From a virus, in IMG/VR virus record IMGVR_UViG_3300037467_003078: a DNA stretch of 64,000 bases; one strand, written 5' to 3'. A program made the position numbers and the translations under genes. Every line of letters starts with the position of its first letter. Position 1 is the stretch's first letter. Under the pieces are notes generated by a model. The model had not been told where the DNA came from and did not search any database. It saw only the letters and a list, made by a program, of their open reading frames with translations. This document shows, piece by piece, positions 41,001-58,077 of this stretch.

Positions 41001-43629
41001 GTAGCGAATCAATGGAGTTAGCTACGATGTGATTACCTGATATTGTATTACCTTTGATATTCTGACCTTCGATAGTGCTACCACTAATTTGAGTACCAGT
41101 TATTTTGCCAACTGTAATTGTATCAGCGTTTACACTTGCTATTTTAGCATATTGGATAGTAGCGTCTTGAATCAATGCGTTAGTGATATTACCACTTGCT
41201 ATATTAGCAGTTTTGATTTCAGCGTTACCAATCTTGGCATTTGTAATTGCACCGTCAGCAATATTAGCTGTTTGAATAACTGCATTTGCTAGAATACCTG
41301 ATTGAGCAGTAATTGTACCTGCTTGAATTGCAGAGGCAGTAATACTTCCAGTAGTAATAGTTTGACCATCAATTACAGTGTTACCTTGTGTATAATATTT
41401 AGAAGGAACAACTTCTTTTACTAGAGATGGTTTTGTCCATTTTACTATTGCCATTGCTCCACTAGTACCTTCTGTCATTTCTGCTAAGAAAGGATACCAG
41501 TTTCCTTGTGTAAGAGAAATAGTCCCTGTTTGCTCTACCCCACCTGAATAAGAAAGTTGATTTACAACAACAGTGTTATTGACAACTACTTTTCCTAAAT
41601 CATCAGCAGTTAAATGGAATGAGTAAGTCCCTGTCTCAGGTGCATAGATGAATCCTTGCCATCTTACTGAGAAACTATCATTCTGACCTACAATAGCAGG
41701 AGAACCTGTTCCCCATGAGAAGTTAATAGTAGGGTCTATTTGACTACCCTTGTAAACTTGGAATTTACTATTTCCACTTGCAGAGTTATATGTAAAGTAT
41801 TGTCCTAGCAATCCTTCTTTTCTACTTCCCACCGTCAAATGGTCTGTGTCTACACTTCCTGCTTGAATGTGATTACCTGAAATCTCATTAGCTTTAATCA
41901 TTCCACCAGTGATTGTATTTGCACTAATATGTTGAGTCTGAATAGAGTTAGCAGAAATGTGTCCTGATTGAATAGAATTTGCACTAATATGACTAGATTG
42001 AATTGAGTTAGCGATAATATGACCTGCATTAATAGAGTTAGCTGAGATATGACTTGACTGAATTGAGTTAGCCGAGATATGCTGAGACTGAACGCTATTA
42101 GCAGAGATGTGACTAGAAGTAATAGAGTTAGCAGAAATTTGTGTAGCAGTAATACTTCCTGCCTTAACATGCTTAGTATCAATACTATTTGCAGTAATGT
42201 GGTTTCCACTAATTGTGTCAGCTTGAATATGCTTACCTTGGATAGTGTTAGCAGTGATATGATTACCACTAATCGTATCAGCTTTAATTTGACTACCAAC
42301 AATCGTATTAGCTGAAATGTGTTGCGTTTGGATTGCATTCGCTGTTATATGACTTGCTTGAATTGAATTAGCAGAAATGTGATTTGATTGAATCGCATTT
42401 GAAACGATATGACCTGCATTAATAGAGCCTGCACTAATATGAGCAGATTGAACACTATTTGCAGATATATGTTGTGCTTGAATCGCATTTGCAGTAATAT
42501 GACTTGCAGTAATATTATTAGCAACAATATGGTATCCAAAGATTGAATCTGAACTAATCTTACTAGCAGTTATTGAGTTAGCAGAGATGTGATTAGTTTG
42601 AATACTGTTTGCACTGATATGTTGAGATTGTATTGCATTAGCACTGATATGTGTAGATGTAATACTTCCTGCTGAAATGTGTTGTGCTTGAACAGCGTTA
42701 GCAGAGATTAGTGTAGCATTAATTACCCCTGCTTTAATATGGCTAGCGTCAATACTGTTTGCTGAAATATGTTGTGATTGAATTGCATTTGCACTAATAT
42801 GACCTGAATTAATAGTTCCTGCATTAATATGGTTTGAATTGATAGCATTAGAACTAATGTGAACTGATTGGATTGCGTTCGCAGAAATCTCACTAGAAGT
42901 TATGGAGTTAGCAGAAATATGGCTAGCATTGATAGCGTCAACTTTAATCTGACTAGCAGTAATAGTGTTTGCCGAGATATGTTGAGTTTGGATAGCGTTA
43001 GCACTTATTTGTCCTGCTTGAATAGCGTTTGCTGAAATATGTTGAGTTTGAATAGCGTTTGCTGTGATATGCGTTGCGTTAATGGAGTTAGCACTAATTT
43101 GCGTTGCACCTATTGCTCCTGCTTGAATATTCTGTGCTTGAATCGCACCTGCTTGTATCTTGTCAGTCGTGATACTATTAGCAGACAACTGAACAGTAGT
43201 AATAGCGTTAGCAGTAATGTGGTTTGCATTAATAGAGTTTGCTGAAATGTGGTTTGCTTGAATAGATTCAGCAGTAATGTGTCTAGCCTCTATCGTATTT
43301 GTTCTGATGTGGTCTGAGTTGACTACACCACTAGCTATGTCACTTGTAGAAATAATAGTAACATTATCATTGATGTCTCGCAGTCCTGTAGACATGCTAG
43401 TTCCACCTTTTGCTAATGGCTGACCATTTCTCCATTCAACAGTAGCCCAATCACCTAATTTAGGTATATATGAATTATCACAGTTAACAGCCTCTAGAAT
43501 GTACCCTGTTCCACCCATATCTAGATTAACTATTTTGTCACTAATTACACTTACTACTTCACCGTAATCAGCGTAGGTGTCATTTGTGTTTGTTGAATAT
43601 TTTAAGTATCTGTTGTTAAACTTACTCAT
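35077..43629 (-). CDS. Giant tail spike/central fibre (2850 aa): OB-like N-terminus, 10-aa beta-helix repeats, PA14, YVTN-like beta-propeller, F5/8 (discoidin)-like domain, fibre C-terminus
   Basis: Repeats ISAN(S/A)IxxxH; PA14 GLLGQYF...FSVRWQGFIYAPETGTYSF; propeller blades (VGKGP, VGDSP, VGSKP, TGANPKG); QWVKVDLGKVY...EVSEDGVTW. Confidence 0.85.
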   Translation of the reverse strand: MSKFNNRYLKYSTNTNDTYADYGEVVSVISDKIVNLDMGGTGYILEAVNCDNSYIPKLGDWATVEWRNGQPLAKGGTSMSTGLRDINDNVTIISTSDIASGVVNSDHIRTNTIEARHITAESIQANHISANSINANHITANAITTVQLSANSITTDKIQAGAIQAQNIQAGAIGATQISANSINATHITANAIQTQHISANAIQAGQISANAIQTQHISANTITASQIKVDAINASHISANSITSSEISANAIQSVHISSNAINSNHINAGTINSGHISANAIQSQHISANSIDASHIKAGVINATLISANAVQAQHISAGSITSTHISANAIQSQHISANSIQTNHISANSITASKISSDSIFGYHIVANNITASHITANAIQAQHISANSVQSAHISAGSINAGHIVSNAIQSNHISANSIQASHITANAIQTQHISANTIVGSQIKADTISGNHITANTIQGKHIQADTISGNHITANSIDTKHVKAGSITATQISANSITSSHISANSVQSQHISANSIQSSHISANSINAGHIIANSIQSSHISANSIQSGHISANSIQTQHISANTITGGMIKANEISGNHIQAGSVDTDHLTVGSRKEGLLGQYFTYNSASGNSKFQVYKGSQIDPTINFSWGTGSPAIVGQNDSFSVRWQGFIYAPETGTYSFHLTADDLGKVVVNNTVVVNQLSYSGGVEQTGTISLTQGNWYPFLAEMTEGTSGAMAIVKWTKPSLVKEVVPSKYYTQGNTVIDGQTITTGSITASAIQAGTITAQSGILANAVIQTANIADGAITNAKIGNAEIKTANIASGNITNALIQDATIQYAKIASVNADTITVGKITGTQISGSTIEGQNIKGNTISGNHIVANSIDSLHIKAGAITTTELSAQSITSDKIQAGSITADSIRVGSIRAEHISTVGLDANIVSVYNPTTGQTLIGGGYLRVDGLDVGVVQSDNLVGNGLFLTASSAFGSKRDNPYGEVLLGNTRAVVGGNQVWKINVTTGQKVQVIDIPSSKPADVSIHPSGNYAYVTVQGDDTVAQIDLATDLLTTNTLSVGKGPNVIKWVGMKLMDMKHFLVLNRDPDDMNVPDTLNVIDSPPTSVNADLYVHHFIPLGNGPYDLVVDDNMQIYVTMADDGDIVVIDASAHDSSTWKVKGRLPISAYGTDNYHGGLPANFGLNEVTGGDASYQYNDAGMAGMVDMPGMSHSHGGYGTSDGSLKTYQPHGIALSSDPNHLYVVDNKNGELVVVDKLGNAPYNALIGTSPNGSFSYGMDMHMDMSSGGTMPGMDMGFGPSPEHLKEMGIASGGGPGTYHVRYRIPVGDSPDFIEIINGKIFVTLEGTGDIAIIDEQKILDEIALDKAYYGNFVEGGVFEKWNVFQPMRDVNAIPVRTISVGSKPSFTDVANGKLFVSLSGQNQVAVINPTTETVTQYINTGANPKGFAFTPDNQYMYVANFGGSGDLSMVYPKGEYIGDAFLGLEGGVVYQGAEWWTPDRSDWVYDASGNVKSRSTVEFRINEPFLNEGGYAKLTTFGKDYQYAQIEQDIYNVSNYSNGDNKLNVKAEKLIQGTGTGNIFYPRNEWLNSPVPSNINIGNVVSGSTILTPANPSKYTIYYGQNARIEFSANTLVSGNWIEADYTCKNDIYFKPHNGSALVAIENGSSPNFNVTMEIDEFVPKFVVYDNQLTATTFTPTADGINQTYTGLEYSTITNRALGMTVTSSVAPTSGGALSKIVDGGEVMSVHGDNTANPLPSSTGTLTFPSGNQWVKVDLGKVYMVGMIQVAHSYGLDRVYQGTKTEVSEDGVTWTTIYDSAVSGTYSEKISYHAPHNHTHYAKTFTFGAKPVRYVRDWANGWKSGDGLTSGSTNNWTEIQVFGDWELEKGYTYPANSELAGQQIATNGKGFVSTDISKAYIAVDIPIEYTTWWYMSYIVGPDFGRIKIDMPTAMGGSHFLELESPFVNKVAHRHIMPFTPSQNIKANDAMNIKAGKHRAVIMQDSGRVTVDRLRFEDYQYLTRSSLLIPSQSTSTIFRRNKLVAEQAKWYQGMGVQSTEGAFDKPRVNPDTGIPDKSVPIKYRMRFRTELNANGTIEERGTAYFTSAIFETGKLSTHWRRSESVDSYPAHKIEKWDGNQPHKTGIQHDHLANGAVRGTKIMPNTIMDWHISNYARIQEHKLELNHPTHAHGKYQVLAGQGPMGTDLYLWKDNSDLLNSMDGWAGTSGNYGTGNTVSRGDHKHDDLYLSLATGGVMKGHIDFGPNNALGLKFGSVANGAVGYIRQSATQGQLDLGSDDLINFYESDSNTLAVSISTNGKTLDAKGGLLENGVALSSKYAPIAHVGSGGSAHAVAVSGGANGFIDGANYGKLLRIQDNAINQTTADGRYIQLNGSTGILSVGGGGGALSLKATSTDHIYMAIYARSGNSTRSGWFGYGTNGNNTMQITNETSGNINISTVGGGLVQVNGSTIWTSANFDPSTKSDTTHVHAVAISGGANGFMSGSDKAKLDGVATNANNYSHPTGDGNLHVPATSTTNSKKVLTAGATAGSLSWANVDYADVINKPTTFTPSAHTHTASNITDLYSNIYTKTEVDTAVSNAGDIKAGQANIFTNTNTFNKAGLGIKIQPSSSVANSTKLFQINNATSSEVFSVNYSGGVVIAGDFTVTGQQIISGTTNVNGDYTISGQLIVGGNSTLGDASTDVTTVNGTLKVQNGSIQEIGKYNEVHRRPIYGIGGDLQFQTDSTVFDDITDYYDLSSYALPTVQAGATRYYRLYVVYSDDITSAQQTGGQKATIRIAGATNKDLDLPITFGLVNGRRDWFSAYFTDLPTGNGKIQAKLALANNNLGIRWIELVAYDKF
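41835..43340 (-). repeat. ~50 tandem 30-nt (10-aa) coding repeats, consensus I-S-A-N-(S/A)-I-x-(A/S)-x-H
   Basis: Visible in both the translation and the DNA (recurring gcagaaat / gcactaat / ttgaat). Confidence 0.9.
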
Positions 43630-47446: not shown

Positions 47447-50400
47447 TTAGTAGGAAGTTCCTTTCCATGATAAGTTACCTAATCTTTGTTGACGCTTGAA
47501 CTCAGTCATAGCTTTTTCAACAGATGTTTCGACAACTTTTTCGATTCCTTTTTGGTCATAATCTCCACCTTCAACAGTTACATTGACATTGATATTGATT
47601 CCTGCACCGTTGCCCTCAGCAGTTGCTTTAGGTACTGTGTTACCAAGTAAAGTTGCTAATTGCTTAGGTTGTAATGCTATCTCACCTTTTTGCATAATAG
47701 CTTGAATCTCATTCGCTTTAAGTTGTTGACCATTAGCAAAATTCATCATTCCTGCGATACCACCAGTATGATAAATATAATCTTTACCAACATAACCTGT
47801 CTTACCTTTGTAGCTTACTTTCGCCCAACCTTTTTCCATTCCTAGGTAATTTACCTTAGCACCTTTAGGTAATACACTCATTACCTTTCCTCCCGGACTA
47901 CTACGGAAATTAAGTGCTTGCTTAGTAGTCTTAGTAGTTCCTTTGCTACCTGAATTAGAATTACCTTTGCTACCCGAACTACTTCCACCGTTACCCTTAT
48001 GAATAACAGCCCAAGTGTCCTTACCAACTACACCATCTGCTTTAAGTCCGTGTTTCTTTTGGTAAGCCTTAACAGCTCTTTCAGTATCAGAACCAAAGAT
48101 ACCGTCTGCCTTAACTCCTACAGCCCTTTGGATTTCCTTAACAGCCTCACCTCTATCTCCTTTGTTAACAGTCCCATGATTATGACCTGAGCCTGATGAA
48201 CCTTTGCCACCCGAAGATTTAGGAGGTGTATTAACCTTAGAGTTGTCAGTTGTAGGATTCTTAACAGCACTTCCACTATCAGGTGCTCCTGCTCCACCCT
48301 TACCAGTGTTAGGTGTTCCACCAGTTGAACCCGGTGTCCCTGTTGGTGGTTTAGATGTACCTCCCGGAACTCCTCCCGGTGTTGTTCCCGGTGGTGTAAC
48401 TATAGGAGTATTACTTCCAACTCCTCCAATAGGAGAACCTGCCTCATTAGTTTCACCATTTTGTTGCCAGTTCTTAACACCTTCAAAACTCTTACCTTTA
48501 GCTTGGTCATATAAGTATTGGTCAATTTTGAATCCTTGTGGTGCATTAAACAGTTGGTCTTTCATGATAGAGAATATACCATCTGTTGAGGCAACAATTT
48601 GTTCGATTAAAGGTAGGAACGGTGCTAGTGCGTTATTAATTTGGTCTCCGAAGTTGTTATTGTTAAACATATTAGCAATATCATCAGGGTTTCCAGTTGT
48701 AGCCGCAGTAGTTACCGAAGTGATTAAGTCATTAATAACTTTCTGTAGACCAGTGTTATTAAGTAGCGTAGCTGATAGTTGAGAAGCTATAGTTGTTGCT
48801 AATGTCTGCTTGATACCATCTATGAAACCTTGAGTAGAATCCATGTTGCCCATGAATCCACTTGCTAGTGCATTTGACAGGGATTGCTCAAAACCTTGAG
48901 AGATAGAATCAATCATTTTAAGAGCATTTTCTTTCTGTTCATTTTGCACATCACGAAGGTCAGACATTCTATCTATGTACTCTTGAATAGACATAGCACC
49001 TGCTTTAAAAGCACCAATAACAGCTTGACGATACTCATTCATTTGACTAATTAAAGCGTCTTGCAAACCTGCTATAATTTGTAGTGTAGCCAGTTGTTGA
49101 TTTTCGTCCATACCTTTAGCACCTGACGCTCTTTTCAGTTTGTCATTAGTAAGGGTTTGTTTAGCAACATTAAGGTTTCTTCTGTTTTCAGAGTAACTTT
49201 TGCTATTCAGGTATGCTTGTTGATTAATATATGTTTGAGCACCTTGACCAGTCATCTCAAAGTATGCCTTAGCATTTTCAAGTCTCTTTTCATCAAGTTC
49301 ACGAAGTTCTTGATATACTGCAACTACATCTTCAAGAGTAGAGTACCAATTCTGAGTTCCTTGAGCGAATGAATTTAAAACCTTTTGAATTTCTTTCAGT
49401 TTAACAAACGCAACATTGATGTCCTCTTGGTCTGACTTTCTCTTTACTGCATTGTAGTGACCAGTTTCAAGACCTGTTGTATTCCAAAATTCACCCATTA
49501 CTGATAATCGTTTCTTAGTCGTCATGTACTGATTATTCATACCATTAAGTTCTTCAACTGTACGATAGTAATCAGTAGTTCCGTCTTGCATAGTAGCTAA
49601 CTTATTGTACCCACCTTTTATGTAGTAACCTGCATTACTAGCATTATATCTAGGGTCTCCTTGAAGTGCTTTTACTAACTCTTTATCCCACTCGTCTAAT
49701 TTCTTATTGTTTTCTTTTAAAGTAGCAATAAGTTTGTCAATAGAAGATACAGCCTCTTTATTCGCATTATATTCGTCAGTTTTACCTGCCTTCAATGCAC
49801 TATTAGCGTCCTTAACATATTGAGCACGAGTTTTAGAAAGTGCTTTCATTTGCTCTACATTACCGTACTTAGCGTCATAGATTTCTTCTCTAGCTTGATA
49901 GTTTCTATCATAAGCACCTAATCTACCAGTTGTACCTAGTACATCACGGATATTACCATGACCATAACCCAATGTCTTGTCTTTATTGTATGACTCTTTA
50001 ATTGTTGCAACATTGTTTATAGCCATTTCAGCCTCGATTGCCTCTTTAAACATTCCAAAAGCAGTTTTAATCATCTGTGCTACTGTTGGCACATCTGCAC
50101 CTAGAGCACCTGCAACACTGCCTCCTGATGTTAATCTAGCATTAGCACCGTCATATCTTTTGCCTCCAACAAAGTCGCTTCGTAATGCGTCCTTTTTAAG
50201 TGGTGCTCCACTCTTATTAGGACCTCCACTGTTCATACCAATGTATTGACCGTTTCCTGCATAGATACCAGTGTGAGTTACTTTGCCTCCACTACCAAAA
50301 TAGACTACATCACCAACTTGTAGGTCTGCTTTATTTGTAATCCTTTTACCTTGGCTATTTTGCCACATGCTATTAGACGAACCAGTTCCTAATTCTACTC

Positions 50401-53400
50401 CTGCAAATTCTCTATAGAAATGTTGAACAAGTCCTGAGCAGTCAGCTTTAGCTTTTTTGATAAATGAATCCCAATCTCCTTTATCATGACCTCCACCCCA
50501 AGAATATCCTAGACCTCCTTGAGAAGCAGATTTATTAACTAGACTATTAAGTACTGCCATTCCACCTTTTCCAACACCTGATGTACTTGAAGAAGATGAA
50601 CCTCCACCTATACCTAATGAACTCCAAGTTTTAGAACCTACAATACCGTCAGCAGTTAGCCCATGACTCTTTTGATAGCTTTTAACAGCTTTTTCAGTTG
50701 CAGAACCGAAGATACCGTCAGCATTAACCCCTAATGCTTTTTGAAGTTCTTTAACTGACGCTCCTTTAGAACCTTTTCTAATAGTTCCGTAAGATGATGA
50801 TACTGATGTACCTCCACCACCACCTAATGCAGACATAGTTGTTCCACCTAGCAATGACTCTTTAGATGTACCTGACATACTAGAGTAGATACTAGCTACA
50901 CCGTATTTCCAGTTAGGGTCTTCTGCATACTTGCTGTTAATTTTAGGAATAGTATCATATCCTTGGCTGATATATACATCTTTTAGTAACCTAGCTAAGT
51001 CATTAATACCTAATTGTAGAGAACCGTATTTTCTATATGTTAGTCCGTCTCCCGGATTAACCCACTTAGTACCGTTCCACTCAGCATTAGCTTTACCAGT
51101 ACCTTTGATGTTACCAACATTATAAGCACCATTGATTACTCCTGATTTACCACCAGTTTCTTGAACTGCGATAGACGCTAAGAACATTGGGTCAATACCA
51201 TATTTAGCACCTGCTTGAACGAACATATTTCCAGTTCCTTGAAGTTTAGTTCTTCCAGTTTTGCTAAAATAAGAATTTATTTTTTCAGTGTAATCTGCAA
51301 CTGCCTTATTATTACCAACCGAAATAGTTCCTCTATTAACTTCTTTTTTGATTTCAGCAGGAGTCATACTAGCTTGCATTTGTTTCTTCATAGAGTTAAA
51401 CTCTCTAGTTCCTTTTTTATACCCGAATTGCTGAGTAATATAAGCGTCTAGTTTTTCAGCGTCAGTAGCATTTTTAGTATTGATACCACCAGTGAATCCC
51501 GGAATTACTGAACCACCAGTTCCAGTTGTTCCTGCTAAATCAGATTGGAAATTTTGAGACTGTTGAGTTAGAAGTCCACTAGTTATATTGTTTGCCCAAT
51601 ATGTTAGTACTTGGTCTAGTTTACCTGCACCATCACTAATAAGGTTTCCTGCTTTAGTGAAATCATTTTGTATTAAGTCTTTAAGTGGTTGAATGAACGC
51701 ATTGTCAAATTCTCCACCCATAGACTTATTGATTTCATCATATGCCTCAACAAGTTTCTGTTCGTCTCCTGCATAAGTTTTAAGAGAAGTCATGATTTTC
51801 TCGTATCCATCTAATCCTCTATCACGGATACCTTCTAATCTACTATTTCTATCTTGAATATAAGAGCCTCCTGTAACAGCACTTCTTATATTAGAGAAAT
51901 TGTTAACTAATGATAGGTCAGTTTTAATGCTAGCAATCTCGTTGTTTAGGTCTTTTACTAGTTGAATACGGTTTTGAACTCTTTCCCACACATCAGCATA
52001 CTTATCAGAATTAAGCACCATTTCTTTAACTTGGTCTGCTTGTTCCTTCATAGCAACTGTTGTAGAGTTAATATTGTCATGAATACTATATTGTTGTTCT
52101 AGTAGTTGCTTGTAAGCATTTTGCTCTGCTGATAGTCCGTTCTCTCCCGGATTATATAGTGTGTCGATTGAGAAATCTTGACCTCCATTTTGAGCCTTAA
52201 TTCTACTCATTTGAGCGTAGACAGAATTTAATTGTGCTCTGTATGCAGATAACTCAGTAGATTGAGATTTTAGTAGGTCTCCACTTCTCTTGATTTTTTC
52301 TTCGTCTGTATTCGATAAATCAAGTAGAGTTTTGGCTTTACCAGTACCAAACTGTATAGCACTAATCTTAGCATTGAATACATCAATCTGAGATTGAGAC
52401 ACTAGTAATTGAGCAGTTAACTGTTTCAATGCTTGTTGTCTCTCAAGTATAGCCATATTAGTTTGTAGAATTTGAGCCTCTGTTTCTTTGTCTGCGTCTA
52501 CAAATCCTGCATTAGATTGTTTGTATGACAGATATTCACTAACTGCATATCTCTTAGCAAGTTCTTTTTCTATATCTTTCTTACTCATACCTGCTTTTTT
52601 AAGTTTGTCTCTAGTTTTATCTGTTACTTCATACTGGTTAGTGATAGTGTCTGCGTTTCCTGAATCATAGGCAAGTTTATAAGTTTGGTCTAAGTCGTCC
52701 ATTTCTGCCTTAGACATTAAACCTCCTTTTATAATCTTGTTTCTTTGACCAGTAATTTTAGTGTCATAAATTCCTGCTTGCTCTTTAAAGTGGTTACCTT
52801 TGTCAGTTAACTCAGTAATAGTTCCACTTAAATCAGACATAGCACCATTGATAAGGTTAATCTTAGCAATGCTAGCACTTGACGAGTTTTCAGCACCCAT
52901 AAAGTTAAAGTCAATTTTAGACATATCGTAACCTAGTCTGTTCATAGTTCTATTGAACTTCTCAGTTAAGTCATTAATTATACCTAATTCTGTTTGATAT
53001 TTAATTGCCTCGTTGTTAGCGATTTTCCACTTCTCTGCTATTTGAGCGTCTTTATCTAAGCCCTTAGCACCTAAAGTGTCAATCATATCCTTCCAACCGC
53101 CTTTGTCATCGGCATTAAAATGTTGTTTATATATCTTGCCATCTTTTCCTTCGGCATTGTACGCTATAGTACTAGTGTTGTTACCGTTTAATCCTGCGAC
53201 AGTTGAGTAAGTAATTCCCATTTCAGAGAATTGTTTTTGAAGTTTTTCAATCTCCTTGGGCATTTTATTTTTCTTAGGTGGTTCGCTCGAAGGCATTGGG
53301 TTTCCGTGGAATGAGCCATTTCTAGAAACTATTACAGTTTTGTTTTTGTCATTCCAGTCTTTCCAAGTATTTAAGTCCTTAGCTAATTTCTCTTTGTCTT

Positions 53401-56400
53401 CTTCTCCACCACCATATACCTTGTTGAAGTTTTTGAACTCGCCTTTCCTTACATTAGCCTCATGCTTTTGATTCATGTCCCATAGTTTCTTACCTACCCA
53501 AACAGCAGTTCCTATGACAGCACCTATAGCACTTAATCTAAGCAAGATTCCTGCAAACCTACCTAGTATTGGAAGTAATCCTTTTAAAGAAGTTCCTAGT
53601 TTAGAGAATAAGTTTGTTGCTACATTGCCTCCAACTTCACCTGCTTTAGCAACATTAGCACCTCTTTTGAAAGGATTGCCTCCCATAAGTACCCAACCTA
53701 CTGCCTGACCGATAACATTTCCTACGCCTGAACCTTTTCCAGTATGAGGAACTTCTACATTAACTTTCCTTTGAGTTCTTCCGTTGAAAGAGGCACGAGT
53801 AATCATTTCTCCTTGAGTAAGAGCACCTATTAATGAACTACCACCTTGAAGCAATCCAGTTCCAAGTTGAAACTTTTTCATCGTAGCAGTTACTAATTTA
53901 AATGCACCTGCTAATGCTAAAATTTGTGTCACATATTTAGGAATATTGAATCCAAATATTTTCTCACTAGCGTCACCTAGTCTAACAATTATATCTAGGA
54001 AACCATTTACTGTTTGAACAGCAACTTTGAATCCACCAAGCAATGCTTTAAGACCATCTAAAGCACCTAGTTCAGCTAATAGTTCAACCGTCTCAGTCAA
54101 TTCTTGCTTTAATTGACCGAACTGAACTTTAGCAGTTTTTAGATAAGTATCAAGTGCATTGTCAGCTAATCCAGTGCTAGTCATATTCTTTTTGAATGTT
54201 TCAGCATATTCAGAACCACTAGCGTCTAAGAACTTTTGAATCTTAGGTGCTTGCGATATACCTTTACCATTAACAGATGACAAGTCTCTAGATACAGATT
54301 CTTTTTGTGTATCACTCAAACCTTTGTAATTCTTAACAACTAAGTCTAATAATTCTTCTTGAGAATAGTTTTGAGTTGTATCAATGCCTAGTGTTTTCAG
54401 ACCTGATTGGATAGACTCACTATCTTTATATCTAGCTAATCCACCGAAGAATGTTTTAGCAACTGTTGTCATATTAGAGCCACTTGAATCACTATCAGAT
54501 AAATTGTAAGCACCTAGCATACCTGCTACTCTCCTAGGGTCTATACCTTTCTTAATAGCGTCAGGAGCAACTTCACTCATAGCGTCCATAATGTTGTTAG
54601 TGTTGACACCACTACCATTCATTAGAGTCATGAAGTCTACGAATCTATCCATGTCGTATACATGTTGTTGACCTTTTCCTTTGTATAGCCCTTGATATAG
54701 AGATAACATATCTTGAGATATACGATTAACATCATCTGCACCTGCATTAGGTCCTAATGTAATTGCACTATATTTTAAGATTTGGTCTGTAATCTTATTT
54801 GCCAACACAGGGCTAGGCTTATCTCCATTACCTTTAATCAGCTCACTTCTAGCCATAACTTGTTGATAAACTGGCATTACAGTGTCAGTAGCAGACATTC
54901 CGTATTTTTGAGAAAGATTTGATACATCTCTGCGAGTATTATGCTTTATGTTATTTTTACTATATCCGAAACCTGAGTATGCTTGGTTTAGACCACCATC
55001 TCTTAGGTCTGTAGTTAGCAATTGAATACGAGACATTTGAGCCTCAAAATCAATCATACTTTGAACAGCTATTTGAATACCTTGACCCATAGCCATGAAA
55101 GCAGTCGTAATACCTGCATATTGCATAGTGTTTCTAAGAGTACTCATAAACTTGTTAGAACGGTCAACAGCGTCTCCGAATCTAGTGAACTCATACTGTG
55201 CGGTTCTAGTTCTAGAGATGGTTCCATCAGCATTACGATTAAATACTTCAAATGAACGAGTTAGGTTTTGATTCATTTCCCTAGCTAATCCACCTGCATT
55301 TTGCTTTAATCTTTCAAGAGCCTCTAACTTGTCATTCTTACTAGCGTCAGGATTTCTTAAAACCATTTCATCATCAAGAATGGTTTTTTGTCTGTTGCCA
55401 CCGTATCTATGTACAGCACCATTCCACTCAGCGTCTCTCCTAGCTTGTTGTTGTTGTCTAGCACGGTCTTGGTCATACTTTCTATTTAGAGCGTCAGCTT
55501 GCTTATGTGCTCTTTCTATTTCCTTTTGTGCTTGTTGTTCAGCTAGTCTCTGAGCCTTTATTTGTGATTGAATCTGTGCTTGAACATTAGAGTTGGTATT
55601 CATTACAACTCTGCCTCTAGTTGCGTTCATAGGGTCAACTAATGGCTTACGATTGTAATAGTTGTTAGGTAATTGGTTTAAGATTGCATTGTCAATCTTA
55701 TCTCTTTCTCTTTGGAACTTTTCTACCTTTTTTCTATATGTGTCTAGTTGACCTGATAATGCTTTTTGGTCATTAGTAGATAGTGTTCTCCAATTAGAAC
55801 CGTTAGCCTTTGACTCTAGTTGAGTTAGAGTATCTTGTGCCTTAGTCAATCTTCTAGTTGATTGGTCTCTCATTTTGAAAAGGTTTGTATTTTCTCTGTC
55901 TAACTTAGCTTGCTTTTCCTTTTCTTTTGTGATAGCCTGTTCAACTTGTAATTCAGTTTTTTGTGCTTGAGCATTTTGCCTTCTAGCACTTGCCATATCC
56001 TTCTCTGCCTGAGCCTGAGCCTTAGCATTAAGTAAGTCTTTGTCTGCTGTACTTCTAGAGCCAACTGACGCAGTTCTATCGTTAACATGGTCACGGAAAC
56101 TGCCTACTACCTCACCGTTTCTAGTTGTTCTAGTTCTACTAGTGTTTACAACTTCTTGTCTTAAAGATTCTATTTGACCTTTAACAACTCTTAAATCGTT
56201 TTGGTCTATTTTTAATCCCACAGTCATAGTTGCTTTGATGTCGCCAACTTGTTTCTGTACTTTTTCTTTTTCGCCCTTGTCAACTTTAAGAGAGGTCTTA
56301 ATATTTACATTTTCTTTGCTATTATTAATATTGTTAAGATGGTGCTTAACATTGTCTACTTGTTGCTTTAAAGCCTCAGCACTTTTATTATCAAGTTCCA

Positions 56401-56653
56401 TTTTGATTTTAATCTTAGGTGCTTGACTTCTGTTGAAGTTGGTAATTACTGCCTTTACTTCTGATTGTAAGTTATTTAAACTAGCACCTTTATCAATACT
56501 GATAGGTAGTTTGATACCACCTTTACCAGTTTTATTGAAATGGTTGCGTATGGAAGTATCTACATCTTTTACATCTTCTAATAATTTTTTTAGAGAGCCT
56601 GTATTTAACTTTAACTCGGTATTAATAATATACTTAAAGTCTTTTCCTGCCAT
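47447..56653 (-). CDS. Tape measure protein (~3068 aa) with glucosaminidase-like, NlpC/P60, 2x PG_binding_1 and SH3b domains
   Basis: Start moved to ATG 56653 (RBS AAGGAGGT). Long helical body; AGAKYGIDPMFLASIAVQETG; ADCSGLV...HTGIYAG; GSKGASVKELQKAL..ADGIFG; LNFRSSPG...GWAKVSY. Confidence 0.93.
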   Translation of the reverse strand: MAGKDFKYIINTELKLNTGSLKKLLEDVKDVDTSIRNHFNKTGKGGIKLPISIDKGASLNNLQSEVKAVITNFNRSQAPKIKIKMELDNKSAEALKQQVDNVKHHLNNINNSKENVNIKTSLKVDKGEKEKVQKQVGDIKATMTVGLKIDQNDLRVVKGQIESLRQEVVNTSRTRTTRNGEVVGSFRDHVNDRTASVGSRSTADKDLLNAKAQAQAEKDMASARRQNAQAQKTELQVEQAITKEKEKQAKLDRENTNLFKMRDQSTRRLTKAQDTLTQLESKANGSNWRTLSTNDQKALSGQLDTYRKKVEKFQRERDKIDNAILNQLPNNYYNRKPLVDPMNATRGRVVMNTNSNVQAQIQSQIKAQRLAEQQAQKEIERAHKQADALNRKYDQDRARQQQQARRDAEWNGAVHRYGGNRQKTILDDEMVLRNPDASKNDKLEALERLKQNAGGLAREMNQNLTRSFEVFNRNADGTISRTRTAQYEFTRFGDAVDRSNKFMSTLRNTMQYAGITTAFMAMGQGIQIAVQSMIDFEAQMSRIQLLTTDLRDGGLNQAYSGFGYSKNNIKHNTRRDVSNLSQKYGMSATDTVMPVYQQVMARSELIKGNGDKPSPVLANKITDQILKYSAITLGPNAGADDVNRISQDMLSLYQGLYKGKGQQHVYDMDRFVDFMTLMNGSGVNTNNIMDAMSEVAPDAIKKGIDPRRVAGMLGAYNLSDSDSSGSNMTTVAKTFFGGLARYKDSESIQSGLKTLGIDTTQNYSQEELLDLVVKNYKGLSDTQKESVSRDLSSVNGKGISQAPKIQKFLDASGSEYAETFKKNMTSTGLADNALDTYLKTAKVQFGQLKQELTETVELLAELGALDGLKALLGGFKVAVQTVNGFLDIIVRLGDASEKIFGFNIPKYVTQILALAGAFKLVTATMKKFQLGTGLLQGGSSLIGALTQGEMITRASFNGRTQRKVNVEVPHTGKGSGVGNVIGQAVGWVLMGGNPFKRGANVAKAGEVGGNVATNLFSKLGTSLKGLLPILGRFAGILLRLSAIGAVIGTAVWVGKKLWDMNQKHEANVRKGEFKNFNKVYGGGEEDKEKLAKDLNTWKDWNDKNKTVIVSRNGSFHGNPMPSSEPPKKNKMPKEIEKLQKQFSEMGITYSTVAGLNGNNTSTIAYNAEGKDGKIYKQHFNADDKGGWKDMIDTLGAKGLDKDAQIAEKWKIANNEAIKYQTELGIINDLTEKFNRTMNRLGYDMSKIDFNFMGAENSSSASIAKINLINGAMSDLSGTITELTDKGNHFKEQAGIYDTKITGQRNKIIKGGLMSKAEMDDLDQTYKLAYDSGNADTITNQYEVTDKTRDKLKKAGMSKKDIEKELAKRYAVSEYLSYKQSNAGFVDADKETEAQILQTNMAILERQQALKQLTAQLLVSQSQIDVFNAKISAIQFGTGKAKTLLDLSNTDEEKIKRSGDLLKSQSTELSAYRAQLNSVYAQMSRIKAQNGGQDFSIDTLYNPGENGLSAEQNAYKQLLEQQYSIHDNINSTTVAMKEQADQVKEMVLNSDKYADVWERVQNRIQLVKDLNNEIASIKTDLSLVNNFSNIRSAVTGGSYIQDRNSRLEGIRDRGLDGYEKIMTSLKTYAGDEQKLVEAYDEINKSMGGEFDNAFIQPLKDLIQNDFTKAGNLISDGAGKLDQVLTYWANNITSGLLTQQSQNFQSDLAGTTGTGGSVIPGFTGGINTKNATDAEKLDAYITQQFGYKKGTREFNSMKKQMQASMTPAEIKKEVNRGTISVGNNKAVADYTEKINSYFSKTGRTKLQGTGNMFVQAGAKYGIDPMFLASIAVQETGGKSGVINGAYNVGNIKGTGKANAEWNGTKWVNPGDGLTYRKYGSLQLGINDLARLLKDVYISQGYDTIPKINSKYAEDPNWKYGVASIYSSMSGTSKESLLGGTTMSALGGGGGTSVSSSYGTIRKGSKGASVKELQKALGVNADGIFGSATEKAVKSYQKSHGLTADGIVGSKTWSSLGIGGGSSSSSTSGVGKGGMAVLNSLVNKSASQGGLGYSWGGGHDKGDWDSFIKKAKADCSGLVQHFYREFAGVELGTGSSNSMWQNSQGKRITNKADLQVGDVVYFGSGGKVTHTGIYAGNGQYIGMNSGGPNKSGAPLKKDALRSDFVGGKRYDGANARLTSGGSVAGALGADVPTVAQMIKTAFGMFKEAIEAEMAINNVATIKESYNKDKTLGYGHGNIRDVLGTTGRLGAYDRNYQAREEIYDAKYGNVEQMKALSKTRAQYVKDANSALKAGKTDEYNANKEAVSSIDKLIATLKENNKKLDEWDKELVKALQGDPRYNASNAGYYIKGGYNKLATMQDGTTDYYRTVEELNGMNNQYMTTKKRLSVMGEFWNTTGLETGHYNAVKRKSDQEDINVAFVKLKEIQKVLNSFAQGTQNWYSTLEDVVAVYQELRELDEKRLENAKAYFEMTGQGAQTYINQQAYLNSKSYSENRRNLNVAKQTLTNDKLKRASGAKGMDENQQLATLQIIAGLQDALISQMNEYRQAVIGAFKAGAMSIQEYIDRMSDLRDVQNEQKENALKMIDSISQGFEQSLSNALASGFMGNMDSTQGFIDGIKQTLATTIASQLSATLLNNTGLQKVINDLITSVTTAATTGNPDDIANMFNNNNFGDQINNALAPFLPLIEQIVASTDGIFSIMKDQLFNAPQGFKIDQYLYDQAKGKSFEGVKNWQQNGETNEAGSPIGGVGSNTPIVTPPGTTPGGVPGGTSKPPTGTPGSTGGTPNTGKGGAGAPDSGSAVKNPTTDNSKVNTPPKSSGGKGSSGSGHNHGTVNKGDRGEAVKEIQRAVGVKADGIFGSDTERAVKAYQKKHGLKADGVVGKDTWAVIHKGNGGSSSGSKGNSNSGSKGTTKTTKQALNFRSSPGGKVMSVLPKGAKVNYLGMEKGWAKVSYKGKTGYVGKDYIYHTGGIAGMMNFANGQQLKANEIQAIMQKGEIALQPKQLATLLGNTVPKATAEGNGAGININVNVTVEGGDYDQKGIEKVVETSVEKAMTEFKRQQRLGNLSWKGTSY

Positions 56654-56690: not shown

Positions 56691-56737
56691 AAAAAATAGG
56701 GAAGGGTATAGTTCACCTGAAAACCTAACCCTACCCT
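56691..56737 (-). terminator. Terminator-like hairpin between the chaperone and the TMP
   Basis: GGGUAGGGU...ACCCUUCCC followed by UAUUUUUU. Confidence 0.55.
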
Positions 56738-56745
56738 TTACCTTC

Positions 56746-57186
56746 TTAATCGTAATCCACACCATTAAACTCATACGAATCACCGTCTCCATCACTTGCA
56801 ACAAGGTCTTCGTAGTATTCTTCGTCTGCGTTATCGAATATGATTACTTCATCGTATTCTAGAGCACCTCTTGATACTGTATTAGAGGTATCTCCTTTCT
56901 TAGCCCTTTTCTCCATCTCTCTAGTCTTATCTTCTACCCACTTATCTAGTAGGTCATCGTTGTTTATGACTTTCATAGGTGGTCTCTCAGGGTGTTCGTA
57001 AATATTATCATAAAATGAGAACCAGTATGCAAGAGCAACTTGTGATGGATTCCAGTCGGCTACTATACCACCAAATAGAGGTGAACCAGTATCTTTACTA
57101 GCTTTCCATCTTGCTCTCCATTCTGCTCCAACTTCTCCCTGCCCCCTAGCTACTTCTCTCAGAACCCTATTCCGAATGGAAGGCAA
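56746..57186 (-). CDS. Tail assembly chaperone, T-like (C-terminal) segment; probably not initiated independently
   Basis: Lies between the G-like gene and the TMP; the only possible start is a TTG four codons after a TAG, preceded by CTCCTC rather than an SD. Confidence 0.7.
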   Translation of the reverse strand: MPSIRNRVLREVARGQGEVGAEWRARWKASKDTGSPLFGGIVADWNPSQVALAYWFSFYDNIYEHPERPPMKVINNDDLLDKWVEDKTREMEKRAKKGDTSNTVSRGALEYDEVIIFDNADEEYYEDLVASDGDGDSYEFNGVDYD

Positions 57187-57405
57187 ACGAGGAGAAATCT
57201 ATTGTCTTTCATAAGCAATATTTCTACCTACCGTTATTTGTGAACTAAAGCACCTTGTCTTGGGGGCAAGGTTAGTATAGCTACTACAAGGTCAGGCTTA
57301 TTTGTTAAAGTGTTGCCTAACACATTAGGATACCTTTGCTTGGTTCGCTATGCTACTTATTATCATATCTCTATGTATCACAGTACGATAGTAGTTATTT
57401 ACTTA
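57187..57405 (-). other. Structured non-coding intervening sequence between the chaperone segments
   Basis: Six in-frame stops; multiple hairpins (GUGUU-AGGC-AACAC, ACCUUG-N9-CAAGGU, UAGUA-GCUA-UACUA); the 3' end pairs with 57435-57447. Confidence 0.6.
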
Positions 57406-58077
57406 TTACTCCTCAGTAGTTTCTACTTCGTCTGTTTCTCCTTCGTCCTCAGAAGGGCTTGCAAGGAAGTCGGCAGGTAAGCCATTAATAAATGTTAAAA
57501 ATTGGTATACAATCATATTAACAGTTTGTTGGTCTTCTTCTTCCTTAAATTCAGCATATTTATTCCATACAGGTTTACCATTCTCTGCATATTCTGTACA
57601 CTTATGAATTAAGAATGACATCTTAGCCTCGTCAGCTTTTGCCTCAGCAGTATTATTGAAATATTTTTGCTTTTCTTGTTGTAAAGCAAACATTTCATCA
57701 CGAAGTTCTTCAATCTTCATCTCGATAGGCAACATGTTTTTCTCTGTTTCCATCTTAGATAGCAATGTTAATTGCTTATTGATTTCTTCACGAATCTGCT
57801 CAATACGCTCGTCATCTTTCTTAGTCCATAGTTTTTTCTTTTTAATTAATTCTTCCATTTCACGATTAGTTGGAATGTCGTCCATAATAGCTTGTTGGAA
57901 TACTTTAGAATACTCCCAATCTGCTAATCGGTTCTCCTCTACCTTTGGATAGCGAATTTGTAGTAAACCGTATTTCTCACTGTCAAAAACTCGTCTTCCA
58001 GTTTGAACCTCTGTCATTTTTTCACGCTTATCCTTATTGCTCATTTCCTGACTTTCTTTCTTTTTAGCCTCTGCCAT
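57406..58077 (-). CDS. Tail assembly chaperone, G-like
   Basis: Helical, charged protein with an acidic tail, upstream of the T-like ORF and the TMP. Confidence 0.75.
   Translation of the reverse strand: MAEAKKKESQEMSNKDKREKMTEVQTGRRVFDSEKYGLLQIRYPKVEENRLADWEYSKVFQQAIMDDIPTNREMEELIKKKKLWTKKDDERIEQIREEINKQLTLLSKMETEKNMLPIEMKIEELRDEMFALQQEKQKYFNNTAEAKADEAKMSFLIHKCTEYAENGKPVWNKYAEFKEEEDQQTVNMIVYQFLTFINGLPADFLASPSEDEGETDEVETTEE

Follow-up and report, generated by a model that had tools for sequence, protein, structure and literature searches.

A candidate ribosomal bypass over a folded 300-nt gap in a tail-chaperone-like gene pair

Natural programmed bypassing is known to us from T4 gene 60 and its homologues, from one Streptomyces phage terminase and from yeast mitochondria, and in all of these the hop is of 55 nt or less. 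Leader shunting in plant pararetroviruses (CaMV) is a pre-initiation event in eukaryotes, performed by 40S subunits as they scan. Bypassing in T4 gene 60 involves matched codons, a stem-loop at take-off, the nascent peptide and an SD-like element 5' of the landing site (PMC5009743). In the terminase of the Streptomyces phage Hau3 the ribosome hops ~10 nt to a landing codon that is brought near by local RNA structure, and involvement of an internal SD has been suggested (PMC10732093, PMC5009743). Ribosome shunting has been named as a parallel (PMC5009743). The locus described here lies in a stretch of 64,000 nt of viral DNA (IMG/VR record IMGVR_UViG_3300037467_003078), referred to below as the window, and is probably another site of bypassing.

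The gene pair and its relatives

A G-like and a T-like ORF are encoded on the minus strand directly upstream of the gene for a tape-measure-like protein, T ending at 56746 and the next gene starting at 56653 (Table 1). The tape-measure-like protein carries the Pfam domains NlpC/P60, Glucosaminidase, PG_binding_1 and SH3_3, and the order of G, T and tape measure is the same in the relatives. A first-pass annotation of the window had placed G and T in one frame, 219 nt apart, with six in-frame stops between them (TAA, TAA, TAA, TAA, TGA and TAG), and had argued that the remaining two frames are also closed, so that neither frameshifting nor readthrough can cross the gap. The first point was confirmed on the sequence and the second by three-frame translation. 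The slippery heptamer and ORF overlap of a -1 frameshift are absent at the G/T junction of the window, and no tRNA genes were found in the window.

Table 1. Features of the G/T locus, in window coordinates
Feature	Position	Strand	Basis or remark
G-like ORF, 223 aa	58077-57406	-	ORF list; product of standard decoding
G core, codons 1-205 of the G ORF		-	ORF list and homology
Last 15 codons before take-off, YQFLTFINGLPADFL; candidate nascent-peptide signal	57463..57507	-	conservation
Proposed take-off codon CTT, Leu205 of G	57463..57465	-	CTT in 21/21 aligned relatives
Coding gap, 300 nt, closed in three frames; long irregular hairpin ('rod')	57163..57462	-	translation and fold
Closing helix, 5' arm, AGCCCTTCTGAG; pyrimidine-rich, anti-SD-like	57448..57459	-	comparative structure
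Acidic G tail, 18 aa, ASPSEDEGETDEVETTEE	inside coding gap	-	
G stop TAA	57408-57406	-	inside coding gap
Apical domain of the rod; long-gap forms only, conserved blocks	57232..57388	-	nhmmer profile
Closing helix, 3' arm, TTCGGAATAGGGTT; G-rich, SD-like	57163..57176	-	comparative structure
Proposed landing codon CTG, Leu	57160..57162	-	CTN in 21/21 aligned relatives
T-like ORF	57186-56746	-	ORF list
T part: resume codon AGA 57159-57157, then 137 codons, TAA stop 56748-56746	56746..57159	-	homology to C-terminal half of single-ORF relatives
Tape-measure-like protein, 3068 aa, ATG 56653	47447..56653	-	downstream of T

Searches of Pfam and PHROG gave no match, nor did Foldseek match the AF2 model of one fused relative (pLDDT 87.5) to any entry of PDB or BFVD. 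One G homologue bears the UniRef name 'Tail assembly chaperone'. Because the pair adjoins the tape-measure gene, and in view of its expression logic, G/T is best explained as a tail-assembly-chaperone-like protein, gene position and expression logic being the sole basis of the assignment. Some G halves are mislabelled in databases, for example as 'chorismate mutase', and T halves are at present either overlooked or called as orphan ORFs truncated at an arbitrary internal start.

In more than 80 distant relatives the T-like sequence forms the C-terminal part of a continuous ORF of ~345-370 aa, the N-terminal half of which is homologous to G. Six closer fused relatives of 317-335 aa were found by a profile search of 1.84 billion representatives, which superseded a word-indexed search for longer proteins that had returned nothing; single-ORF relatives span 317-370 aa overall. 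Fused homologues had been predicted by the first-pass annotation. Many relatives encode the fused form as a plain ORF only, and homologues of G fall into 73 clusters, all of 201-238 aa. Nothing was found among the INPHARED phages by blastn and tblastn, nor in the GTDB representative genomes. Because the single-ORF relatives carry both halves colinearly, G and T are, on this comparison, two halves of one protein, and the split is real. It is very improbable that T is the dead remnant of a disrupted gene, with G alone being made. Whilst T has no start codon of its own, as might be expected of a remnant, it is conserved as a protein with an open frame and 57% mean column identity in 26 clusters and in all split relatives, and the gap architecture itself is, from the comparisons given below, under selection.

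The clade of split forms to which the window belongs comprises 23 distinct sequences, and codon columns were counted on 21 aligned relatives. Gap lengths run from 64 to 303 nt and fall into all three mod-3 classes, with stops in every frame. Nine relatives have gaps of 64-89 nt, and their boundary features are the same as in the long forms. A short-gap copy was located in a ~161-kb element of Paenibacillus xylanexedens GCA_003833245.1, which provides a cultivable host context, and the clade appears to consist of Paenibacillaceae phages. In the relative L118 the frames overlap and a perfect C CCT TTA -1 slippery site stands at the homologous position; this relative, the only one seen with such a site, would join its halves by classical -1 frameshifting. 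A -1 or +1 frameshift was also considered for the short forms and was rejected, the T frame being closed in some of them until one codon before the G stop and the offsets differing.

The junction and its matched leucine codons

Joined as Leu|Arg (...FINGLPADFL-REVARGQ...), the two halves align without a gap to the six fused relatives, which share a pattern of Gly, six residues and then Arg-x-h-Ala-Arg-Gly. The alternative join DFL|NRVL needs a four-residue insertion with respect to the fused relatives. The three junctions tested against a profile of the fused proteins gave 170.7, 166.6 and 163.9 bits, the Leu|Arg junction scoring highest and the Pro-Ser junction of the first-pass annotation lowest. 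Comparison places the junction at CUU 57465-57463 and CUG 57162-57160, with a gap of 300 nt and a predicted product of 342 aa.

The hop proposed in the first-pass annotation had been that of a Pro-tRNA over 273 nt, from CCU 57456 to CCU 57183, beside a 12-bp helix of GACGAAGGAGAAA (57447-57435) with TTTCTCCTCGTT (57197-57186), to give a product ...DFLASP|SIRNRVL... of ~352 aa; the junction of the fused homologues had been expected near NGLP/ASP-SIR, whereas they align gapless at ADFL|REVARGQ instead. The CCT-TCT and CCT-TCC Pro-Ser pairs and the complementarity are present in the window at the positions given for them, but neither the matched Pro-Ser codons nor the helix register is conserved in the relatives. 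Furthermore, the T frame is stop-closed between the Pro landing point and conserved T in L006, L019, L027 and L130, and the product would be 10 residues longer than the fused homologues. This form of the hop is hardly credible, although the broader proposal, that of long-distance bypass across a structured gap closed by a helix, describes the mechanism that fits best.

The two boundary codons behave differently from other conserved leucines. Landing codons in the 21 aligned relatives are CTT (11), CTA (8) or CTG (2) and never TTR or CTC, compared with 24-67% TTA/TTG in nine other conserved Leu columns of the same sequences. As CUA and CUG differ from CUU, just the first two of the three positions are always identical between take-off and landing. 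In L130 a TAA stop stands immediately 5' of the landing CTA. At take-off the A site would hold GCA in the window, whilst in the relatives it would hold GTA, GTT, ATT, TCA, TCG, CAA or others; this is an ordinary, variable sense codon, and neither a stop nor a rare codon is present right after the take-off codon. Upstream of the junction, the last 15 residues of the G core are conserved more strongly than any other 15-residue stretch of G (0.97, the mean being 0.76, in 21 split relatives), and the Asp codon within them is GAC in 21 of 21 relatives. Conservation of these residues could equally be a structural constraint.

Two further ways of reaching T from G were tried and rejected. A stop-hop from the last G codon across the stop to a matching codon fits, by eye, the short forms L021 (AAA to AAA) and L023 (GAA to GAG), fails for L016 and L024, and ignores the conserved junction. 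A short upstream ORF from the conserved TTATGAAA motif, followed by a frameshift, was rejected since the frame of this ORF relative to T varies among relatives.

A different reading of the same boundary is that gene fission has left G and T as separate but translationally coupled proteins, the helix masking an SD-like 3' arm by means of the anti-SD-like 5' arm within the G tail until ribosomes translating that tail open it and T is started at a non-canonical codon. In many relatives a GGAGG- or GGGGG-like 3' arm faces a CCCUCC-like 5' arm, the classical layout for masking a ribosome binding site; an ATG, TTG or ATT lies two to three codons past the landing codon in some relatives, and T is listed by gene callers as a separate small protein. 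The only start that the first-pass annotation could assign to T, TTG 57186, preceded by CTCCTC and without an SD, is indeed the sole one in the window, but it lies inside the rod and is not conserved, and in 17 of the 23 sequences the stretch that runs from the last in-frame stop to the landing codon, ahead of the conserved Leu-Arg, contains no in-frame ATG, GTG or TTG. Past the landing codon, the window has none for 62 codons. The spacing of 0-5 nt between the SD-like arm and the Leu codon is too short for initiation. The Leu-Arg pair is kept as protein in the fused relatives, and the AGA that specifies its Arg is changed to CGG in two relatives. Coupling would also offer no explanation for the invariant CTT with which the G core ends, and is considered unlikely.

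The folded gap and its closing helix

The gap had been described in the first-pass annotation as rich in structure, and this was borne out by the fold of a 324-nt segment, at -85.5 kcal/mol (z = -3.3 versus shuffles). Within the gap lie the G tail, the G stop and the apical domain. RNAalifold applied to 8 clade members gave 75 pairs, 29 of them with compensatory changes, and it kept the closing helix both in 14 long forms (12 pairs, 6 compensatory) and in 8 short forms (11 pairs, 4 compensatory). Covariation across related phages, proposed earlier as a check, is found in this closing helix. The register of the 12-bp helix mentioned above is absent from the minimum-energy fold and from the comparative structure, which pairs 57459-57448 with 57176-57163 and proceeds inward from there in another register.

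The 5' arm of the closing helix starts 3 nt past the take-off codon in the window and reads CCCUCC in short-gap relatives, and the 3' arm abuts the landing codon in the window and reads GGAGG or GGGGG in relatives. A G-rich 3' arm (GGG to GGGGGG, or GGAGG) is found 0-5 nt before the landing codon in 23 of 23 sequences. Across the clade the spacers are 3-7 nt from take-off to helix and 0-5 nt from helix to landing. Cognate arms pair at -22.3 +/- 1.9 kcal/mol, as against -14.3 for non-cognate and -9.1 for shuffled arms. Because G.U accounts for 39 of the 351 helix pairs and the sense strand is stabler than the antisense, the closing helix is regarded as an RNA feature of the mRNA strand. Comparison of the relatives makes three things apparent: the codon constraint on the matched Leu codons, the covariation in the closing helix and, for T, the absence of a start.

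The nhmmer profile of the apical domain has one match in the window and, in relatives, matches solely at the G-T gap. The domain was considered as a mobile element and rejected as such, since nhmmer detected no second copy in the window, nor any copy away from the G-T gap. Three matches were returned by a pattern scan of IMG/VR, and the apical-domain profile recognised none of them. No conserved structure was found in the 60 nt upstream of take-off. A weak sigma-70-like match (9/12) lies inside the gap at 57244-57217 (-). It was discarded as an internal promoter, since such matches are about as frequent in shuffled sequence and a transcript from there would still be without a start codon for T.

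A closing helix of this kind also invites a reading at the RNA level, in which ~300 nt (64-303 in relatives) would be cut out at the helix foot and the ends ligated, either by an unknown self-splicing activity or by a phage or host endonuclease and a ligase, so that G would be made from unprocessed and GT from processed mRNA. Covarying helices joining both ends are typical of introns, excision would give a role to the conserved, highly structured apical domain of ~160 nt that otherwise goes without explanation, and the homology-defined junction fits as well as it does for bypass. However, no Rfam family (group I, group II or small ribozymes) was matched at permissive thresholds by the gap of the window (E <= 10) or by seven relatives (E <= 0.1). 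The junction falls in a CT/CT repeat, and wherever it is placed, U before the 5' cut and G at the 3' end of the excised piece do not occur together in all relatives. The U/G rule is not obeyed at the homology-defined junction, and the U|...G| splice junctions offered as an alternative in the first-pass annotation found no support. A group I ribozyme would be expected to take up ~200 nt or more. The 64-89 nt gaps are bare hairpins, too small for a ribozyme, and yet their boundaries are the same. Excision supplies no reason for the CUU/CUN constraint on both boundary codons, and we know of no bacterial enzyme system for mRNA splicing.

Group I introns were tested specifically. The comparative fold is a rod and not a P3-P9 core, and the last base of a piece excised at the homology-defined junction would be T or a base that varies. 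A candidate intron CTT|...TCRG| (57462-57172, 291 nt) is in phase and obeys the U/G rule, and was rejected since it adds four residues that are missing from the fused relatives; the L130 stop before the landing codon, the short gaps and the lack of an Rfam match also told against it. A self-splicing intron is unlikely because there is no Rfam match, the U/G rule is broken and gaps of 64-89 nt keep the boundary features, and excision at the RNA level by whatever agent is likewise improbable.

A proposed bypass and its counterparts

The reading preferred here is that of programmed translational bypassing from CUU to CUN over the folded 300-nt gap, by which the locus would probably yield both G (223 aa) and GT (342 aa). 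Under standard decoding, most ribosomes would read on past the Leu205 CUU, unwinding the lower part of the hairpin, add the 18-residue acidic tail and stop at UAA 57408, giving G. A fraction would stall with peptidyl-tRNA-Leu on the CUU at the hairpin foot. This tRNA would unpair from the mRNA, the entire folded segment would be skipped, and re-pairing would take place at the CUG at the 3' foot of the same closing helix, which would bring the take-off and landing sites together. Decoding would restart at AGA to give ...FINGLPADFL-REVARGQGEVGAEW..., and T would be expressed solely as the C-terminal part of GT. The joining would thus be performed by the ribosome and not at the RNA level. Take-off may be aided by the conserved nascent peptide, whilst melting of the anti-SD-like 5' arm by the ribosome may free the SD-like 3' arm for capture by the 16S anti-SD and so position the landing codon. 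G and GT would presumably both be needed, in a set ratio.

A more specific form of this proposal has about an even chance of being correct. It is that of a 70S 'shunt', in which the elongating ribosome would cross an intact hairpin of 64-303 nt from foot to foot, the SD-like 3' arm being handed to the 16S anti-SD so as to dock the landing codon in the P site; the Paenibacillaceae phage clade would use this instead of -1 frameshifting to set its chaperone ratio.

A number of observations weigh against bypassing in general. Among established natural bypasses the longest is that of T4 gene 60, at 50 nt, and the gaps here are 1.3 to 6 times as long. The gap is a stable structure, and linear sliding or scanning would meet earlier CUU or CUG triplets, for example in the 5' arm. 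A ribosome holding CUU in its P site would already have melted several base pairs at the start of the closing helix, which complicates the geometry of take-off. The model assigns no part to the conserved apical domain of the long forms, the A-site codon after CUU is neither a stop nor rare, and the landing match is guaranteed at two of three positions.

If correct, the hop would far exceed in length every other natural ribosome hop known, and the clade would constitute a second, independent family of bacterial bypassing, with more than 20 natural variants, gaps of 64-303 nt and rich covariation. It would offer a comparative handle on how a ribosome releases and re-finds its mRNA, and would identify bypassing as a means of making two products in a set ratio, a task usually accomplished in tail chaperone genes by -1 frameshifting.

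A number of parallels can be drawn with T4 gene 60. In both, the coding sequence for a single protein is divided into two ORFs by a non-coding gap closed in all frames; the take-off and landing codons are matched for a single peptidyl-tRNA, here with the first two positions always identical; the landing codon is closely preceded by a purine-rich, SD-like element; and the residues just ahead of take-off are strongly conserved, which here could equally be a structural constraint. An RNA helix is found at take-off in each, here 3-7 nt past the CTT, the likeness being one of position only. By contrast, the gap of 50 nt in gene 60 compares with 300 nt here (64-303 in the family), folded as a single long hairpin whose feet flank both codons, and the hop is from Leu CUU to CUN rather than from Gly GGA to GGA. 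The take-off codon is followed here by an ordinary sense codon, so that standard decoding yields a second product, G, and the 60 nt upstream show no conserved 5' stem-loop. Gene 60 encodes a topoisomerase, in which bypassing neutralises an insert, whereas the present gene is a tail-chaperone-like gene with no mobile-element sign found, and the presumed role of the hop is to set a product ratio.

The Hau3 hop (~10 nt) and the byps of Magnusiomyces mitochondria (27-55 nt) share with the proposed hop of 300 nt the re-pairing of a tRNA at a non-overlapping codon, matched fully or two-out-of-three. Those hops, however, extend over tens of nucleotides at most and are triggered by an unreadable or rare A-site codon, while here the A-site codon is ordinary and the distance reaches 303 nt. 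With leader shunting in CaMV the locus has in common that take-off before and landing after the base of a large stable hairpin would skip the whole of it, although here the traveller would be an elongating bacterial 70S ribosome with its nascent chain.

The lambda-type G/GT genes are similar in organisation. In both cases the pair lies directly upstream of the tape-measure gene and a short product is accompanied, here by prediction, by a C-terminally extended fusion with the N-terminal part in common, and L118 has its -1 site at the homologous position. The lambda-type pair is joined by a -1 frameshift, unlike the present locus, where no ORF overlap or slippery site exists and 300 nt containing stops in all frames intervene; many relatives, moreover, encode a plain fused ORF only, and Pfam, PHROG and Foldseek searches detected no resemblance to known chaperone families in sequence or fold.

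The G and T reading frames

| Feature | Coordinates | Strand | Remarks |Coordinates of the G–T locus in the window and of one relative's copy
Feature	Coordinates	Strand	Remarks
G ORF	58077-57406	minus	223 codons
T ORF	57186-56746	minus	146 codons
Tape-measure-like protein	47447-56653	minus	3068 aa; glucosaminidase, NlpC/P60, two PG_binding_1, SH3_3
Proposed take-off codon CTT	57465-57463	minus	CTT in 21/21 aligned sequences
Proposed landing codon	57162-57160	minus	always CTN in aligned relatives
Closing helix, 5' arm	57459-57448	minus	
Closing helix, 3' arm	57176-57163	minus	
L130, prophage copy	Chengkuizengella axinellae GCA_030730905.1, contig JAVAMP010000002.1, 87704-94387		

The first-pass annotation had described a G-like and a T-like ORF that share a frame and are separated by 219 nt holding six in-frame stops. 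The ORF list and translation bear this out; three-frame translation confirms that the remaining two frames are also closed, and there is indeed no Shine–Dalgarno (SD) sequence at TTG 57186. The tape-measure-like gene comes directly after this region, and upstream of G there is a hairpin of terminator-like form. Another, imperfect one, rich in G+C (GGGTAGGG ... CCCTTCCC) and with a run of T after it, stands between the stop of T and the start of the tape-measure gene (56691-56740, minus strand). It looks like a terminator or attenuator; its long loop kept the consensus scan from reporting it. The window holds a second giant ORF, of 2850 aa, at 35077-43629. No family matching G or T was found in Pfam or PHROG, none matching the G–T region in Rfam, and no sequence similar to either among deposited phage genomes.

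IMG/VR, JGI metagenomes and other assemblies supplied the relatives of T. Over 80 distant ones (30-45% identity) have a single unbroken ORF of ~345-370 aa that carries the T-like sequence as its C-terminal part and whose N-terminal half is homologous to and colinear with G. In an HMM built from 21 fused proteins, G covers positions 1-178 and T 183-297. Searching 1.84 billion representative proteins by profile yielded 1439 matches, among them closer fused relatives of 317-335 aa (proteins P0102-P0106 and P0110). Fused homologues, proposed in the first-pass annotation as a check on joining, do exist. Close homologues of G (at least 44% identity) are 201-238 aa long in 73 of 73 clusters, and so the entire close clade is split. 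In an intermediate relative, L118 (47% identity), T overlaps G and lies in the -1 frame; C CCT TTA, a perfect slippery heptamer, occupies the homologous position (L118:1495-1501) and the zero-frame G tail is 45 residues long, which is the classical G/GT arrangement. These comparisons point to a single protein family displaying plain fused ORFs, -1 frameshifting and a split, helix-closed form. That T is simply dead is contradicted by its conservation and is very improbable.

The chaperone assignment is putative, based on the site directly before the tape-measure gene, two-product logic and the UniRef name of one homologue. AlphaFold predicts a mostly helical structure for a fused relative with good confidence (pLDDT 87.5), and the model has no match in the PDB or BFVD. 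Several JGI records label homologues of G 'chorismate mutase', which looks spurious since no Pfam support for it was seen for the window's protein. Where relatives have a named host, it is Paenibacillus xylanexedens, P. illinoisensis or Chengkuizengella axinellae, which makes Paenibacillaceae the probable hosts of the window's phage. In the C. axinellae copy, L130, the G tail is lysine-rich rather than acidic, and the genes after T encode a 406-aa protein and one of at least 1347 aa with CBM_4_9/Laminin_G_3 matches, with no obvious tape-measure protein.

Boundary codons and the junction

Two size classes make up the split clade of 23 distinct sequences, all of which keep the take-off codon, the constrained landing codon and the closing helix described below. 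Measured from the last conserved G codon to the first conserved T codon, gaps are 64-89 nt in nine of the 23 and 228-303 nt in the other 14, including the window (300 nt). All three mod-3 classes are represented, so the G–T frame relation is not conserved. In 17 of 23 sequences no ATG, GTG or TTG follows the final stop of the T frame before conserved T sequence begins, indicating that TTG 57186 is an accident rather than a start; the next canonical in-frame start in the window comes 62 codons downstream.

The G core ends ...GLPADFL, coded GAC TTY CTT, with an unvarying take-off codon throughout the aligned split clade. The T part starts Leu-Arg-x-(I/V/L/M)-Ala-Arg-Gly, its landing Leu being CTT (11), CTA (8) or CTG (2) in the 21 aligned sequences and never TTA, TTG or CTC; nine further conserved Leu columns in the same sequences, taken as a control, are 24-67% TTA/TTG. 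Two codons before take-off, GAC (57469-57471) is used by 21 of 21 relatives, although another conserved Asp column has 10 GAC and 11 GAT, a pattern suggestive of synonymous-site constraint beside the take-off site.

With both Leu codons counted as one, the product reads ...FINGLPADFL-REVARGQGEVGAEW... (342 aa) and aligns without gaps to the six closer fused relatives, which share an invariant Gly, six residues, then Arg-x-h-Ala-Arg-Gly. In L130 a TAA stop stands directly 5' of the landing CTA, so that the T frame can be entered only at that codon. Scored against the distant fused-protein profile, this Leu/Arg junction reaches 170.7 bits, a group I-compatible junction 166.6 and that of the first-pass annotation 163.9, the lowest of the three. 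Joining of G and T into a single protein at Leu/Arg is highly probable. The four-residue-longer junction, the sole group I-compatible one, was rejected as needing a four-residue insertion relative to the fused relatives. The first-pass annotation had instead proposed a hop between matched Pro-Ser codon pairs, with its own helix register. The complementarity and the codon pairs are physically there in the window, but neither they nor the resulting junction are conserved, and in-frame stops block them in several relatives; those specifics are scarcely credible.

Excision of the same segment at the RNA level would equally join the halves. It is unlikely: no ribozyme family was matched in Rfam, the junction does not follow the U/G rule, the short forms are below ribozyme size, and splicing leaves the codon constraints without a reason.

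The closing helix and the rod

A closing helix links both gap ends in 23 of 23 split sequences, its 5' arm beginning 3-7 nt past CTT and its 3' arm stopping 0-5 nt short of the CTN codon. The arms covary freely (CCCCCGCAG/CTGCGGGGG, CCCCCGCAA/TTGCGGGGG, CCCTCCAC/GTGGAGGG; also ..TCTGA/TCAGA.., ..TCCGA/TCGGA.. and CTACAC/GTGTAG). With RNAalifold it is the only helix retained across 14 long forms (12 pairs, 6 compensatory) and is recovered in eight short forms (11 pairs, 4 compensatory). Pairing energy is -22.3 +/- 1.9 kcal/mol for cognate arms, against -14.3 for non-cognate and -9.1 for shuffled ones. G.U pairs make up 39 of 351 helix pairs and stability is greater on the sense strand than on the antisense, which marks the helix as an mRNA feature.

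In the window's sub-clade the 300-nt gap forms one long irregular hairpin, or rod (75 pairs, 29 compensatory), the window's own fold having -85.5 kcal/mol and z = -3.3. The G tail and stop codon are located in its 5' strand. An apical domain of ~160 nt with conserved sequence blocks is confined to the long forms and to the G–T locus. A (T/G)ATGAAA(G) motif (window 57210-57217, TTATGAAA; aligned positions in relatives' loci L001-L028) is kept in the 3' half of long gaps, even by clades with otherwise unalignable inserts (L013/L014, L019); part of it pairs, in the window clade, with bases directly past the G stop, and, as the frames differ, its ATG opens no conserved ORF. A purine-rich run ending GAAAC (window 57436-57440; GGAGAAAC, GAAGAAAC, GGGGAAAC) lies in a predicted internal loop of the rod's 5' strand in all long-gap clades but L025, and also codes part of the acidic tail.

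Probable ribosomal bypassing and its precedents

The joining is probably done by the ribosome. Bypassing accounts for the frame independence, the stops in all frames, gaps down to a 64-nt hairpin and boundary codons read by one tRNA family; the long-distance bypass of the first-pass annotation survives as a general idea, without its codons, helix and junction. Peptidyl-tRNA-Leu would detach at CUU and pair again at CUN, reading restarting at the AGA that follows. Most ribosomes would continue and yield short-tailed G, and a smaller share would hop to give GT, mirroring the -1 frameshift of L118; a sense A-site codon fits such a two-product design. We infer a hand-over of the arms from their sequences: the ribosome would melt the 5' arm, which is anti-SD-like (many relatives have CCCUCC), releasing the SD-like 3' arm to be caught by the 16S anti-SD, which would dock the adjoining landing codon. 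Linear scanning through the gap is unlikely because the 5' arm holds other CUU and CUG triplets. The arm sequences would also fit independent initiation of T once the SD is unmasked, but start codons are absent, the SD spacing is too short and the conserved Leu-Arg belongs to the protein in fused relatives, making this doubtful.

Bypassing in gene 60 depends on matched codons, a take-off stem-loop, the nascent peptide and an SD-like element before landing (PMC5009743). Here the matched Leu codons and the G-rich 3' arm (GGAGG or GGGG) are counterparts of the first and last of these, and the closing helix may correspond to the stem-loop. A candidate for the nascent-peptide signal is the 15 residues preceding take-off, where G is most conserved (0.97 versus a mean of 0.76), though a structural constraint could equally explain this. 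Three things set the locus apart from gene 60: an ordinary sense codon, which varies, occupies the A site; a conserved 5' stem-loop was looked for and not found; and the gap, up to sixfold the length, is a single stable hairpin. Natural bypassing is known from gene 60 and its homologues (50 nt), the Hau3 terminase (~10 nt) and mitochondrial byps of 27-55 nt (PMC5009743, PMC10732093); full-text literature searches gave no report of it in tail chaperone or tape-measure contexts. If confirmed, the G–T locus would represent a form of bypassing that is new and arose independently, its gap length and geometry being without precedent, and a new means of setting the G:GT ratio.
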